Shown one piece after another: positions 15,001-27,000 of a DNA stretch of 64,000 nucleotides (position 1 is its first letter; each line of letters begins with the position of its first letter). A program made the position numbers. The stretch is from contig JBDNIV010000017.1 of assembly GCA_041688145.1 (NCBI GenBank), positions 1 to 64,000 on the forward strand. The letters are read 5' to 3'. The DNA comes from Chlamydiia bacterium (GTDB lineage Bacteria; Chlamydiota; Chlamydiia; Chlamydiales; JAAKFQ01).

Positions 15001-18000
15001 TGCTATAGCTTTAACGTTTGGGGCTGTATCAGTTTTTACAATCCGAGGGCTTTACGATAAGTTTACATCAAAAAAAGGTCCCCTTCAAGCTACCGCGGCA
15101 GATCTTATAGGAGATGGTAGGCAAAGTAGGCAGCTCCTAGGTAAGGCCCATTTTAAAACTTTTGTGAGCTGGTTTGATCCTTCTCAAAATATTTTAGACT
15201 ATGAAATTGAATCTAAAACACAACAGAATGAAGACCTACGTGCTGAGGTAGGAGATGCTGATACAGAAGGCTTACAACAACATCTTATTAATGCTCAAAA
15301 GATAGCCGATGGAGAGCTTCTTGACGATGCTCATGTAAACCCTGTGAGGCTCGCGTCTGGTGTACCCAACTCAGCTGGCACTCCAGCTAGAGATAAGGCC
15401 CCTGAATGGAAAGAAGCTCTTGAAAGAAAAATTCATAGCAAAGAGGTTGAATCTCAAGCTTTAGAGGCTAAAATAGCTGCGCTTAGGCTTAAAAAAGATC
15501 CTAGCTTAAATACATGCCGCATTGAAGATATTGCTGTTGTAACACTTGGTCTATGGGTTGCAAGTAAATTTCCCGTTGTGGGCTGGATAGTAGAAGCTGT
15601 TGCTGTAGTGGGATGTCTTGTTTTAGGTGGCCTTGGGGGAAGCTTGGCTTACCAATTTGCTATAGAACCAGATACAATAGAAGCCTAAGAAAGGCTATAT
15701 CCTGCTCTGCTCTTCAGAGCTATGCTAAGCAAACAGAAATTACTATTGAATGCCAACTTTCAGATGGAAGCAGGTCTGGCTCTCCAACAAATGTCTTCTT
15801 TTGACATTCATTTTAAAAATCTGTCTTTAATAAATATTGGAAAGGATAGCGGCAGTCGGATTCGAACCAACGACACCCGGATTATGATTCCGGTGCTCTA
15901 ACCAACTGAGCTATGCCGCCGTCGGCTAAAAAAATTAGCGGGGAAAGGATTCGAACCTCCGACCTTTGGGTTATGAGCCCAACGAGCTGACCACTGCTCC
16001 ACCCCGCGATAGAAGATTAGCTTAGCGCATAAGAGACATTTAACTCAAGGAGCAAGAGATACATTTGAAGAGATAAGAGCTTCTCTACTTGCAAAAGTTT
16101 TTTCCAAAATAGACTCTAGAGCTTTAAGAGTCGCTTCAGAGCTGCCTTGACACTCTTTAATAAGAGCTTCTCCCCTTTGCACTAAGGCTTTTCTTAGATT
16201 CGGGTCTGTCAAAAGAGCCTCTATATCTCTACCCAGCTCATCTGGCATAGATTCAATCCCAGCTTTAGCTCCAAGCGTTTTTTCTCGCATAGGTAATTGC
16301 GTATACATATGAGGACCAAAGACAAGAGCTGATCTTGCCAAAAGAGGCTCAAAGATATTGTGCCCCCCTATTTTAGAAGTGAAGCTACCTGCAACAATTG
16401 AGATGTCTGCAATAGTATACAAAGGGCATAAAAGGCCCATCTGATCAACGAGTAATAAGCGAGCAGGCTTTAGAGGTTTATCTTTAGATAAATCTAGGTG
16501 ACTATAGCGATCAGCTTTGTAGCTGGTTCGGCTTAGAAAATCAAAGACCCCATCCCACCTTTGGGGATGACGAGGCACAAAGATAAGATGAAGCGTCTTG
16601 TCTTTGTCTAAAAGCGGTTTTAGCTGATTGAAAATTAGCTCTTCTTCTGTGGGATGAGTTGAGCCAATGACAATAATCTTGTCGCTTTTTGTATAGCCAA
16701 GTTTTTCTCTAAGATCGCTTTTAGGATAAAAAGGCTCATCGTACTTGAGATTGCCAGTTACACTCACTTGAGATGAGCTTTTACCAAGCGCGCAAAACCG
16801 CTCTTTGTAAAGCTCAGACTGGCATGCAATATGATCGATGGGGGCAAGCAGCTTTTTTGAAAAAAAAGAGAACTTTTTAAACCTGGAAAAACTTTTTTCT
16901 GAAAGTTTAGCGCTCGCTAAAAAGATTGCAGATCCCCTTTTTTTAGCTTCTGATAAAAAATTCAGCCATAGATCCCCTTCTGAAAGGATAATAATATCAG
17001 GCTGAGCTACATCTAAAAGGCGGCGAACAGGTCCTTTGAAATCTATGGGGAAAAAAGTGTACAGATTAGCATCTTTTAAAAAGTTTTTTGCAGCTGTATG
17101 GCCTGTTTGGGTGATAGAGGTAATAGTAAAAAAAGCATCTGGGTATCTTGCTCTTAAACGATTATAAAGAGGCGCTATAGCTTTAGCTTCACCTACAGAA
17201 ACGGCATGGATCAAAAAGCGAAGTGGCTTTTCACCAGCTTTTAAGCTTTTAGAACGCTCTATATCTTCTATTTTCGGCAAGTTACTATTAAACCTCACCC
17301 TCACATCGCACCATTTACCTTTGAAAAGGCGGGATATACTTGCAAAGGCGGCCCATAAGCCTAAAGCGCCTGTGTATAATATCATCGCTTCACCACAAAG
17401 TTAATCAGCTTATTAGGCACAAATATCACTTTAATAATGCCAGGCTCAAGATACCCTTTTAGGCGCTCATCATTGGTTACGAGCTCAGTTAGATCTGCCT
17501 GATTGAGCCCTTTGACTTTGTCAAAAGTCGCTCTATGTTTGCCATTCACCTGAACAACATAAGCTACATTTTCTTCTTCAACAGCTTTAGGGTCTATTTC
17601 TGGAAAGTCTGCTGTGTGAATATCATCAGTGAAGCCAAGGCGCTCCCATAGCTCACAAGCAATGTGAGGCGCAAAAGGATAAAGCGATTGAATTGCATAA
17701 CGAATCGTCTTTTTTGGATAGATTACTAGAGGCTGCATGCTATTTAAAAATTCCATCATCTTAGCAATCGCTGTATTGAACTGAAGCCCTTTTATATCTT
17801 CCGTAACTCCTAAGACGAGCTTATAGCCAAGGCGCATGCCTTTTTTGATAGCGCACGCAGGGTCTTTCTCATCAGGCCGGGCTTCTTGGATTTTGTCGCT
17901 TGTGCATAGATCCCAAAAGCGGTTTAAAAAACGCCAAGAACCCAGTATTGCTTTAGTATCCCACAGTTTTTCCCGATCAAAAGGACTCATAAACATCTCA

Positions 18001-24000: not shown

Positions 24001-27000
24001 TATCCCACTTCGCTATTCCTAAATGCTCTCGCAGTTTCTCAATGTCAGCAACTAAATCCCAAGTAGTATTTTCATCTAAACAGGCGTGAGGTGTGCTTTG
24101 TCCAGACCCTCTTTGGTCAAAAGCGACAATACGAAAACGATCAGGATCAAAATAACGCCTGCTTTTAGGAGTGATTTGCCCGCCAGGTCCCCCATGAAGA
24201 TATAGGGCTGCTTTACCGTTAGGCTTACCGCTTTGCTCATAATACAGGGTATGGATGTCACTGACAGGCAAAAAGCCCGCATCAAAAGGCTCTATTTCTG
24301 GATAAAGATATTCACCCACTACAAGAAAGCTCCTATGAGGCATGTTAAAGGCCCCTAAAACTTACCATGGACGATAATGACTTTTCTAAACAAGCTCTGG
24401 ATTTAGGCGGCTTGATTCAGCAGCGCTCATTTGATCTAGGCGACTTGTTTGGTGCATAAGCAAAAGGTCTGCTAAAACAAGCGCTGTCATAGCTTCTACT
24501 ACTGGCGCTGCGCGCACAGCAATACAAGGATCATGCCGCGAGCCTTTGGGAAGCTTGTGTACTGCCGCCTCGTCAGAAAGCGTGATGGTTTTTTGCGGCT
24601 TTTGAATGCTAGAAGTCGGCTTAAAAGCAGCTCGAAAAATAAGAGGCATGCTTGTCGAAATCCCCGCTAAGACTCCCCCAGCATGATTGGTTTTTGTTCT
24701 AAGCCCCTTTTGAAAAGAAACCGGTTCATCATTATGCTCTGAGCCCATCATTTTAGCAGAAGCAAAGCCAGATCCAATCTCAAAGCCTTTGCAGGCAGGA
24801 ATAGAAAGACAGGCATGTGCAAGCTTTGCATCTAGCCGCTCATAAATAGGAGCGCCAATGCCTGCAGGTAAAATAGCTTGCGCCTCTATAATTCCGCCTA
24901 GGGAATCGCCTGATTTTTTAGCGGCCTCTATTTTAAATGCTATCTCATTGCTTGTTTTTTCATCTGGGCAAAAAAGAGGATCGTTATATGTCTGATTTCT
25001 TAAATCTTCAAATTCAAGATCAGAAACATCTAGAGCTATGCCTCCAGCTTCTTTTAAATAAGCTACACACTGGATGCCAAAATGCTTTAAAAGCTTAGCT
25101 GCTATAGCCCCCGCTGCCACCCGGCTAGCTGTTTCTCGAGCAGAAGCTCTGCCTCCCCCAAGATGATCAAAAACGCCGTATTTTTTTAGATATACTCCAT
25201 TGGCATGACCCGGCCTAATGATATCCTTTAAATCACGGTAAGCCATAGAGTCTTTGTTCTTATTTTGGATCAGAAGAGATATAGGAGATCCTGTCGTATA
25301 TCCATCAAAAACACCCGATAAAATCTCCACATGATCGGGCTCTTTTCTGGGAGATACCCATGGAGTTTTCCCAGGAGCCCTACGATCTAAGGCGCCTTGA
25401 ATGTCATCTTCATTAAGCTCTAAACCTGCAGGGCACCCATCAATCACAACTCCAATAGAAGGCCCATGAGACTCTCCCCAGGTAGTGATGCGAAATGCTT
25501 GGCCAAAGCTATTTGAGGGCATGGGACGCCTCACTATGGACTAAAGAAGTGATATAGCTAACAACAGCTTCGTGATCGTATTTTTCCATATCGACCTTTA
25601 TATCTGCTAAAGAAGAAAAAAGGGGGTCACGCTTTGCCCAAACAACTTTAAAAGAGGTGTGAGGATCTTTTGCATCTATAAAAAGAGGCACTCCATTTTT
25701 AAACATTTGCCTCTCTGCAGCTCTTTTAGAAAGATGCATGTAAACGAAACGCACATTACCTGCCAGGTGTTTAATCACTTCAGGATTAGTAAGCGCTCCT
25801 CCCCCAAGTGCGATGATTTGAGGCTTAGAAAAATCTATGGAAACAACAGCCTTAATTTCAAGCATTCTAAAGAGCTTCTCTCCGTATGTATGGAAAATTT
25901 CTCGACAACTTAAAAGTCGACCGGTTGTTCTTAAGTACATTTGTTCAATAAGTCTATCAGTATCAACAAAAGTGCACCCCGCTCGCTTTGCAGCTTCGCG
26001 TCCATAAGTGCTTTTACCTACATTTTTAAATCCAATAAGAGCAAGTGACATAAAACGGCCTCCTAGCTAAAACCCTAAGCCCCCCAACTATACGCTTCAA
26101 AGAAAGTTAAGGGCACGGAAAAAATAATGTTTCTAAAAAATTAGGGTATGTTTTCTCTATACATGCCGCTTGAGAAAGATGCGTTTTTCCCTCTGCTCTT
26201 AAAGCTGCAATACTGAGTGCTAAAGCAATTCTATGATCTTTATGGCTATCCACAAACGCGCCTTTAAGCGCTTTTTCATAAATAATAAGACCTTCTTTTT
26301 CCACTTCAATATGGGCGCCCATTTTTTTCAGCTCCTGTGCAATCACCTCAATGCGGTTACACTCTTTTGCCTTTGCAATAGCGCCATTAAAAAGATGCGT
26401 TTTTCCTTTAGCAAAGCAGCCAATAACAGCAAGTAAAGGAAGTGCGTCAATTATAGGGTTCACATCAATAGCTCTTCCCACTAAAAACTCTGTTGGAAAT
26501 ACCTCAAGAGCCTTTTGTGAAATGCGCACATCAGCTCCCATTTCCTGCAAAAGATAAACGAGCGCTTTATCTCCTTGGCTATCTGAAAAATCGACACCCT
26601 CTATTATAAGATGAGAGCGCATTAAAATAGCCGCAACAAGAGGATAGCTGATAGAACTGAAATCTCCTGGCACTTCATAAGAAAAACCTGAATATCCCCC
26701 TTTACCGAATACCGTAATTTTCTGAAAATCTTCATTCTTATACGAAACTCCTAAGCGATCAAGCCAATCTAAAGAGACGCTCACCCACGGCTTTTCTCCG
26801 GGGTTTTTCACGCGGATTTCTAGAGGTTGTACAAGCAAGGCTCCTAAAAAAATAAGTGCTGATACAGGCTGAGAGTCTCTGCCTTCTAACTCTACGCACA
26901 AAGGCCTATTACTATTGATACAAGCCTTAAGTTCTCTTAATGCATTTGATAAATCATCCATAGGCCTTGAGAGCAGTGAAGCATCGCCTGTGAGGTTGAT

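Follow-up and report, generated by a model that had tools for sequence, protein, structure and literature searches.

The region around leuS and aroC in this chlamydial genome raises a simple question: where do its isoprenoid precursors come from? The genome-wide survey's note had reported that ispG is missing here from its place between the two genes. The window is the 64,000-base stretch that was analysed, positions 1-64000 of contig C32 of the genome under study (G000; 1,275,035 bases, 51 contigs, 92.29% complete). It was compared with 300 species genomes, whose families are given by code (f2, f4, f7, f9, f10, f11 and f13); on the strength of one named homolog, f10 probably corresponds to Rhabdochlamydiaceae, and f13 appears to resemble Waddliaceae, from its mevalonate operon with IDI-2.

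Loss of the precursor pathways in G000

Homology searches of G000 gave no match for IspG, IspH, Dxr, IspD or IspF, for GHMP kinases (IspE and the mevalonate kinases), for HMG-CoA reductase, or for either IPP isomerase, IDI-1 or IDI-2. Matches to the Dxs model stay far under the cut-off (best 70.7 bits versus 465.95). The mevalonate pathway is judged absent from the lack of HMG-CoA reductase and GHMP kinases. Remnants of MEP genes were not found by tblastn with chlamydial orthologs, nor were MEP or idi remnants by six-frame profile searches in which stops were read as X. The best matches in these searches were to an ordinary NUDIX protein without the IDI NxxCxH motif (E 7.8e-5) and a weak one to the IspD profile (E 0.0013).

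Four of the expected gene slots are closed inside contigs. In relatives, dxr is flanked by rseP in 10 of 10 loci and by troD in 9 of 10; in G000 the troD and rseP reading frames lie 25 bases apart. Likewise xseB adjoins ppnK, the order being xseB-dxs-ppnK in all six MEP genomes examined. The ispD slot (SWIB-truA) and the ispF slot (after gltX-FNR) are also closed, the reference order for both coming from one genome, G001. The ispE gene follows rplI in 6/7 loci of relatives, and the 334 bases from rplI to the contig end in G000 hold no ispE match. The MEP pathway has been deleted from G000. Profile, tblastn and six-frame searches, together with the closed slots, thus confirm the survey's claim that no MEP, mevalonate or IPP isomerase gene is present.

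The dxs and dxr slots are better evidence of this loss than the window (Table 1), which is a weak marker. In all five f7 regions compared, ispG is found upstream of leuS, either adjacent to it or one gene away; this is not so in the f2, f9, f10 and f11 regions, which leaves leuS within one gene of ispG in 5 of 9 regions. The proposed position therefore holds on its leuS side, for f7, and not on its aroC side, as aroC is near ispG in none of the nine. When the window's AroC was used to scan a genome collection, all 24 loci obtained were non-chlamydial and supplied no family names.

Table 1. Features of the window, with their relation to the isoprenoid genes of relatives.
Feature	Position	Strand	Remark
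waaA (Kdo transferase)	16045..17385	-	with leuS, the pair after ispG in f7 genomes
leuS	17382..19934	-	relatives' ispG regions compared
A+T-rich spacer, 174 bases	19935..20108	.	upstream of leuS, the ispG place in f7 relatives; no remnant
conserved chlamydial protein, no known family	20109..21587	+	in G117 follows the ispG block, with smpB
smpB	21624..22085	+	in G117 likewise after the ispG block
prolyl aminopeptidase	23360..24343	-	unrelated to the finding
aroC	24386..25534	-	in an aroB-aroD/E-aroA-aroK-aroC run (chorismate for menaquinone)
methyltransferase and metallo-beta-lactamase-fold gene	50688..52383	-	homologs close to ispG in several relatives
gap, 690 bases	52384..53073	.	downstream of the phosphatase gene, the ispH place in G099 and G241; no remnant
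low-molecular-weight tyrosine phosphatase	53074..53559	-	ispH follows in G099 and G241; in G001 one gene between
undecaprenyl-phosphate translocase-like protein (PF04018)	53618..54661	-	a sign of C55 carrier use

Retention of prenyl consumers

UppS, MiaA, MraY, MurJ and FtsW/RodA were all found in G000, and MenA sits in a menA-B-D-F run. There is a single prenyl synthase, of class B with Ser at -5. It scores 131 bits against the FPPsyn cut-off of 275, where the class A enzyme of G001 reaches 335; the chlamydial FPP synthase (class A, IspA) has been lost. UppS, a prenyl synthase, MenA and MiaA are thus kept as the survey had stated, and its claim of a retained peptidoglycan pathway stands for MraY, MurJ and FtsW/RodA, the genes looked at. 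The PF04018 gene of the window is an additional sign of C55 carrier use. Across ispG-less genomes, UppS is found in 77/78, MiaA in 79/80 and a prenyl synthase in 77/80. G000 very probably takes IPP and DMAPP from its host, and probably FPP too, as the primer for UppS.

Extent of the loss among chlamydiae

Both ispG and HMG-CoA reductase are missing from 67 of the 300 genomes. In 55 of these, spread over 10 families, dxr and ispH are absent too, and these 55 are called pathway-less here; the loss is common to several chlamydial families, as the survey's note had proposed. The genes are missing too from G146, a member of the same family as G000, and from the single-contig genomes G132, G170 and G220; G221 retains an ispH fragment with two stops. 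HMG-CoA reductase occurs in 11 of the 78 ispG-less genomes, from five families. In three of three pathway-less f10 genomes tested, HctA is absent.

Type-1 IPP isomerase is present in 17/55 pathway-less genomes versus 5/222 ispG-positive ones. FPP synthase accompanies it in 16 of the 17, which could therefore live on IPP alone. The IDI-1 of 24 out of 30 genomes exceeds the TIGR02150 cut-off. Among 12 aligned sequences, the metal-binding His pair, the NxxCxH motif, the ExE glutamates and the Trp, which we take to be the catalytic residues, are invariant or nearly so. Among the 67 genomes that lack both ispG and HMG-CoA reductase, none has a type-2 enzyme over the cut-off; weak IDI-2 matches in 38 genomes were rejected, being a short C-terminal piece far under the cut-off.

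NTT-X, a candidate importer in relatives

Many pathway-less relatives carry a divergent paralog of the nucleotide transporters (NTT/TLC), named NTT-X. In f7, f10 and f11 it occurs in 42/46 pathway-less genomes versus 1/63 ispG-positive kin, counts that overstate the number of events because kin are not independent. Five candidates per genome were scored, G005 being left out. Of the 300 genomes, 44 carry top-tier NTT-X (E <= 1.6e-158), and each of them lacks both ispG and HMG-CoA reductase; it is found in 0/222 ispG-positive and 0/11 mevalonate genomes. Seven pathway-less genomes supplied the sequences for the profile, which favours such genomes in its score tiers. Congeners differ: NTT-X is present in G031 and absent in G099 and G113, present in G186 and absent in G117, and present in G252, G285 and G295 and absent in G159, G202 and G268.

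On the TLC model (PF03219) NTT-X reaches 320 bits, and it shares the fold of NTT1, with TM values of 0.74-0.80 to CpNTT1 (9J3N) and AtNTT1 (9J3M), the value of 0.80 being to 9J3M. The C-terminal K-Y-x-x-F-D-x-x-K-E motif and further K, D and R positions are invariant as in NTTs. Its own invariant changes concern charged and aromatic residues and include K70E, G/S163K, N196S, Y299D/E, W310F and K311L (numbered in the frame of the NTT1-like protein of G141). It forms a separate branch, at a distance of some 1.0 substitution per site from the clade of NTT1 and NTT2. A single origin within pathway-less genomes is rejected, as these sequences do not form one clade (p-AU 2e-53). Related transporters with the same residue signature occur in 10/222 ispG-positive genomes and one mevalonate genome. 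In the tree they fall nearest the gamma subclade, a placement that is weakly supported (80/62). Six adjoin thiE or a thiL-like gene; a seventh adjoins the riboflavin operon.

The position of NTT-X was examined in 49 genomes. In 11 it stands between xseA/B and ppnK, the dxs slot, and in 19 more it is within 3.5 kb of ppnK; dxs is beside it in none. It is head-to-head with type-1 idi in 12, a count that excludes four apparent neighbours (G295, G135, G237 and G069) found to be overlapping reverse-frame artefacts, and beside the men operon in five. It directly follows rplI, the ispE slot, in G258, and is one gene from troD, the dxr slot, in G084. An apparent IspH match beside NTT-X in G031 is an outer-membrane protein. 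The neighbours in 60 metagenome loci are ppnK (29), xseB (27), idi (6), men genes (5) and thiE (1), and never a MEP gene. The idi pairing is restricted to the beta subclade, and FPP synthase is present in 18/20 beta carriers versus 2/22 gamma carriers. In genus g98, held together by the ppnK and xseA trees, the slot contains dxs, NTT-X beta or NTT-X gamma; as both flanking genes follow the genus, replacement of dxs by recombination including the flanks is unsupported.

We consider it somewhat probable, from sequence, fold and gene context, that NTT-X moves prenyl diphosphates over the inner membrane, and it is the best importer candidate for these relatives. On balance, it may also be the first identifiable importer of IPP/DMAPP in an intracellular bacterium, recruited at least three times, spread laterally between chlamydial families and repeatedly placed in the dxs slot. 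Its gain would have made dxs dispensable, often by in-place replacement, and the remaining MEP genes would have decayed after dxs was lost. Where idi and FPP synthase are present, IPP alone would suffice; genomes without them would need DMAPP and probably FPP as well. Beta NTT-X, with idi and FPP synthase, would then import C5 units, and gamma NTT-X, whose carriers mostly lack FPP synthase, FPP too. The source may be a broader group of carriers for small-molecule diphosphates, with other members serving ThiE.

NTT-X is absent from G000, G146 and 11 other pathway-less genomes; with 13 of 55 lacking it, nine of them, G000 included, outside f7, f10 and f11, it is not the sole route. Its best matches in G000 are canonical NTTs, at 307 bits, and tblastn found no fragment. 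A divergent NTT-like gene at C42:23334, 6 kb from uppS, was rejected as NTT-X; it belongs to another clade shared with the MEP-positive G117 and G156. Among 65 G000 proteins (61 of 74 predicted membrane proteins and four men proteins), with many MFS and EamA carriers, none stands out as an importer. The family of the window would have reached the same state via a different importer. Taken as a whole, host dependence of G000 with NTT-X as importer in its relatives is a likely explanation.

Alternative explanations

The most serious alternative accepts host dependence and lets NTT-X import thiamine mono- or diphosphate, HMP-PP or NAD, tracking MEP loss via the use of DXP in thiazole synthesis or a partnership with ppnK. 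This we regard as unlikely. It draws on ppnK, the most frequent neighbour of NTT-X, on thiE-NTT-thiE cassettes in G101, G253 and G160, on NTTs adjoining thiE in G064 and G234 or a thiL-like gene in G251, and on the NTT-X of G065, two genes from thiamine pyrophosphokinase. Chlamydiaceae, however, require imported thiamine diphosphate, and the 29 small MEP-positive genomes of f4 are without NTT-X. Cofactor import leaves unexplained the pairing with idi, which persists in G248 at 6 kb from ppnK, and the placements in the ispE slot, in the dxr slot and by men genes. The MEP-positive R. helvetica, which makes heme and menaquinone only (PMC6490308), also counts against it. For NAD in particular, the characterised carrier PamNTT4 falls outside the canonical NTT clade (PMC5381601), whereas NTT-X matches the TLC model well.

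Could finished long-chain lipids (polyprenyl phosphate, quinone) be taken from host membranes instead, the retained synthases being vestigial? The lack of FPP synthase and idi in G000 and its PF04018 gene would fit, but nearly all pathway-less genomes have UppS, MiaA and the prenyl synthase at full length and free of internal stops, MiaA itself requires DMAPP, and 17 genomes have an intact idi, all of which makes this quite improbable. Slightly less probable still is an unrecognised route to IPP/DMAPP in G000, or the salvage of prenol or mevalonate through divergent kinases. No importer stands out in G000 and annotation covered part of its genes; against this, G000 has no GHMP kinase. A lower mevalonate pathway was also rejected for the GHMP kinases found in other pathway-less genomes: the ten matches, from nine strictly pathway-less genomes, are best described as heptose-7-phosphate-kinase-like and lie among sugar-nucleotide genes. 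We know of no alternative route that bypasses both the Dxr-to-IspH steps and HMG-CoA reductase. A mere gap in the incomplete, 51-contig assembly is very improbable: although five of the 67 genomes (G079, G219, G241, G260 and G300), with dxr and an IspE-type kinase, do look like gaps, in G000 seven unlinked genes are all missing, four slots are closed, and G146 and single-contig genomes share its state.

Discussion

Uptake of IPP/DMAPP or longer prenyl phosphates from the host, as the survey's note had suggested, is the best reading of the shared loss. Among Chlamydiae this has a precedent, contrary to the note's expectation that it would be new: a preprint of 2024 reported that Reclusachlamydia socialis has neither the DXP nor the mevalonate pathway, and argued for supply by the host from the parallel with Rickettsia parkeri (bioRxiv 10.1101/2024.11.28.625222). 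In its available text, the preprint describes the loss in one species and a comparable pattern of gene loss in one related MAG, calls the DXP pathway well conserved in Chlamydiota, and names only NTT1, NTT2 and UhpC, proposing no importer. The present sample extends the loss to 55 species genomes and adds a candidate importer; within the literature searched, this breadth is new, and prenyl diphosphates are not a reported substrate of any NTT.

Rickettsia and Orientia have neither MEP nor mevalonate pathway; they keep UppS and have lost FPP synthase, and their idi is patchy and horizontally gained (PMC5615194, PMC6854040). G000 resembles Orientia and the idi-less Rickettsia, most Rickettsia having IPP isomerase; among the pathway-less chlamydiae, about a third carry the type-1 enzyme. 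Chlamydiae differ in keeping menaquinone and not ubiquinone. Waddlia chondrophila is self-sufficient through a mevalonate operon that replaces the MEP pathway (PMC2878342), and genomes of this type, with HMG-CoA reductase, are without top-tier NTT-X. Ahyong et al. (2019) proposed that transporter gain permitted MEP loss in Rickettsia, with molecular identities uncertain (PMC6854040). NTT-X is a concrete candidate, its gene context fits the order of gain followed by loss, and its family is routinely assayed in E. coli.

If NTT-X does import prenyl diphosphates, the substrates of NTTs extend beyond nucleotides, and these cell-impermeant compounds could be supplied to engineered cells. The absence of HctA in the pathway-less f10 genomes tested is relevant to the connection of IspE with chromatin release. 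Fosmidomycin indifference follows as a prediction, and so does statin sensitivity, the latter restricted to hosts that rely on the mevalonate route. About a sixth of chlamydial species may have turned isoprenoid parasites via NTT-X, and isoprenoid parasitism would then be common, not exceptional, in Chlamydiota.

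Loss of isoprenoid precursor synthesis in G000

Family searches of the chlamydial genome studied here (G000; 1.275 Mb, 51 contigs, 92.29% complete) find no match to IspG, IspH, Dxr, IspD or IspF, to GHMP kinase or HMG-CoA reductase, or to the isomerases IDI-1 and IDI-2, with positive controls detected every time. The mevalonate route is represented in these searches by HMG-CoA reductase and GHMP kinase. Matches to the Dxs model reach only transketolase or dehydrogenase level. No remnants of MEP genes appear in tblastn or six-frame profile searches with chlamydial orthologs. Together, these searches bear out the genome-wide survey's note, which reported no MEP, mevalonate or IPP isomerase gene, and the loss is almost certainly real.

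Several of the neighbourhoods that hold MEP genes in relatives keeping the pathway (MEP-positive) are closed in G000. The dxr gene lies upstream of rseP in 10/10 loci and downstream of troD in 9/10. The troD and rseP frames of G000 are separated by 25 bases within a 30 kb contig, with no dxr. Between xseB and ppnK, dxs is found in 6/6 MEP genomes, and in G000 the two genes abut at 76138/76142 of the window's contig (C32), past the window end. Downstream of rplI, the position of ispE in 6/7 loci, G000 has 334 bases and no ispE. The ispD and ispF slots, defined from G001 alone, are likewise closed. The missing genes are almost certainly a loss, not an assembly gap. The weakest of the slot evidence is the ispG slot previously placed between leuS and aroC: ispG adjoins leuS in five of nine regions (all five from family f7), and none of the nine contains aroC.

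Features of the window (C32:1-64000)
Feature	Position in window
Two neighbouring tRNA genes, called Met (CAT), 3' of waaA	15847-16009
leuS, conserved gene of no known family, smpB, two small ORFs, prolyl aminopeptidase, aroC	17382-25522
Short ORF, possible gene fragment, matching sulfotransferase weakly (E 2.8e-4)	22129-22578
Complete aroB-aroD/E-aroA-aroK-aroC run	24386-29807
ispH slot	52384-53073

With the aroB-to-aroC run, chorismate for menaquinone is still made in G000; the prenyl tail precursors are not.

Retained prenyl consumers

G000 keeps UppS and MiaA, menA-B-D-F with cytochrome bd, and MraY, MurJ, FtsW/RodA and an undecaprenyl-phosphate translocase-like gene. Both MEP-positive controls have two prenyl synthases. 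Class A, the FPP synthase (the G001 copy scores above the FPP synthase cut-off), has in most sequences a Tyr at the fifth position ahead of the first Asp-rich motif, where class B has Ala or Ser; G000 and G146 keep class B alone. Judging from known enzyme substrates, and because there is no isomerase, MiaA would need imported DMAPP and UppS imported IPP; UppS would probably need imported FPP as well. Import of isoprenoid precursors from the host is very probable in G000, whose synthase and isomerase state matches the Orientia pattern in an excerpt of PMC5615194. Three f11 genomes (G033, G065, G165) show the reverse of G000, keeping class A and lacking class B. G283 (f38, 0.8 Mb) has neither UppS nor any prenyl synthase and keeps MiaA; DMAPP alone may suffice there.

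Repeated loss across chlamydiae

Among 300 scored genomes, each at least 90% complete, ispG is present in 222 and absent from 78, 11 of which encode HMG-CoA reductase. Twelve of the 67 genomes without either gene retain dxr (11) or ispH (5); five of these 12 additionally encode an IspE-type kinase and resemble assembly gaps. The pathway-less remainder, 55 genomes from 10 families (f10, 28; f7, 14; f11, 4; f1 and f34, 2 each; f4, f5, f19, f20 and f38, 1 each), includes three single-contig genomes. Loss and retention are mixed within five families and within genera g12, g67 and g78, so loss occurred repeatedly. The pathway-less G141 (f4, g84) has two NTTs only and no NTT-X (see below); the other 28 scored f4 members have ispG.

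Searches for dxs, ispD and ispF covered five genomes each, with dxs also sought in five further MEP-positive genomes; IspD-like genes persist in two pathway-less genomes. A second IspD-like cytidylyltransferase occurs in the pathway-less G077 (L106) and G065 (L107), with a paralog in MEP-positive G001 (L109).

Type-1 IDI is present in 17/55 pathway-less versus 5/222 ispG-positive genomes. FPP synthase is kept in 16 of these 17 and in 9 of the remaining 38, class being assigned by sequence for 69 loci and by score for the remainder. Four ispG-positive genomes have type-1 IDI and no NTT-X: G086 (two copies), G243 (g33; three copies, one with a stop), G030 and G228.

HMG-CoA reductase genomes belong to five families (G039, G044, G274, G206, G067, G229, G231, G278, G284, G115, G287). 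The enzyme co-occurs with type-2 IDI in f13 and G206, and with type-1 IDI in four f18 genomes and G115; GHMP kinase gave no match in G287 and G284. The pattern suggests that the mevalonate route was gained several times.

A published link connects IspE with Hc1 release. HctA (Hc1) is missing from three pathway-less f10 genomes (G132, G077, G031) and present in MEP-positive G099, which fits this link. However, at about 32000 on contig C9 (L441:1429-2115), the same locus as hctA of G099, G000 keeps a gene in which a weak match to the N-terminus of Hc1 is joined to long Lys/Ala/Arg repeats; the coupling is therefore not universal.

A divergent NTT as candidate importer

Pathway-less genomes carry one NTT-type nucleotide transporter more than their kin. 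The extra paralog belongs to a divergent class, NTT-X, found in 7/10 ispG-less and 0/5 MEP-positive genomes among 15 scored in full. A profile built from those seven sequences was run over the 300 genomes, five candidates being scored in each. Its top tier holds 44 genomes, all without ispG and HMG-CoA reductase, a count to be read with the training on pathway-less genomes in mind and in which related genomes are not independent events. The second tier (15) adds another four of the 55 along with one partial genome, one mevalonate genome and nine that are ispG-positive; ispG-positive G160 scores just under it. Within f7, f10 and f11, NTT-X occurs in 42/46 strictly pathway-less versus 1/63 ispG-positive genomes (G160, thiE-linked); in the remaining seven families it occurs in 0/9 pathway-less genomes, including G000.

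Of the 49 genomes with flanks read, 11 have NTT-X between xseA/B and ppnK, 19 have it no more than 3.5 kb from ppnK and 19 have it elsewhere; dxs is never next to it. NTT-X stands head-to-head with idi in 12/49 (with one gene between in G092) and adjoins the men operon in 5/49; it is directly 3' of rplI in G258 and one gene off troD in G084. Sixty metagenome loci repeat the pattern. Six top-tier genomes still have dxr or ispH, with NTT-X in the dxs slot in five, and G221 has an ispH fragment with stops. From these leftovers, the importer would have been gained first and the MEP pathway have decayed afterwards.

In a tree using 54 of 105 rows, pathway-less NTT-X forms three subclades (alpha 100/100, beta 100/99, gamma 100/99) and two single branches; a single clade was rejected by a tree test. 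Both f7 and f10 contribute sequences to beta and to gamma, whereas the flanking ppnK and xseA track genus, and genus g98 has dxs, beta or gamma in the same slot in either orientation. Mixed subclades with genus-true flanks imply either sideways transfer with repeated placement in the slot, or repeated loss. We favour sideways movement with more than one insertion over an ancient arrangement sorted by loss.

The predicted structure of NTT-X has the NTT1 fold. NTT-X retains the basic and acidic positions typical of the family's C-terminus, with invariant changes of its own elsewhere, and is somewhat more probably than not a prenyl diphosphate carrier. Ten ispG-positive genomes carry related transporters, so the wider family is not tied to MEP loss. 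Of these copies, six have thiE or a thiL-like gene alongside. In the mevalonate genome, the related transporter (L400, G287:C1:912615) lies 3' of the riboflavin operon, after ribBA-ribH; the NTT-X residue signature is common to all these relatives. We read the wider family as transporting small phosphorylated precursors, the neighbouring enzyme hinting at the substrate: HMP-PP with thiE, IPP with idi. A thiamine-type substrate is possible for gamma NTT-X. The NTTs in thiE-NTT-thiE cassettes, or with a thiL-like neighbour, are scattered among chlamydiae (L402, L408, L412, L411, L406, L403, L491) and probably import precursors of thiamine, either HMP-PP or thiazole phosphate; the position of L400 suggests a flavin-related substrate.

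One NTT-like clade, highly divergent and well conserved, is represented in G000 at C42:23334-24752 (L286), beside a LysR regulator and 6 kb from uppS. It has several copies in G077, one adjoining NTT-X, and is present in MEP-positive G117 and G156.

Relation to earlier work

The survey's note held isoprenoid parasitism to be new for Chlamydiae. That claim fails, as the excerpted text of bioRxiv 10.1101/2024.11.28.625222 already describes double loss of the DXP and mevalonate routes in R. socialis as novel chlamydial parasitism. Other sources, likewise in excerpt, describe the Waddlia mevalonate operon (PMC2878342), ispD, E and G in R. helvetica (PMC6490308), isoprenoid scavenging by Rickettsia (PMC5615194, PMC6854040) and PamNTT4 outside the canonical NTT clade (PMC5381601). 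By word search, isoprenoid, terpenoid, mevalonate and MEP are unmentioned in the main text of PMC8242063, PMC11317633, PMC5826181, PMC9723776, PMC9816063 and PMC9666466; PMC13001223 does not mention chlamydiae, and PMC10663253 names them solely for their IspG form. The literature covered, outside supplements and most subscription journals, yielded no report on how widely the loss extends, and none of an NTT that carries prenyl diphosphates; gene absences may be visible in the supplements of the cited papers. What is new is the phylum-wide pattern of loss together with NTT-X; with these in hand, it becomes possible to test directly what the IPP/DMAPP importer is.
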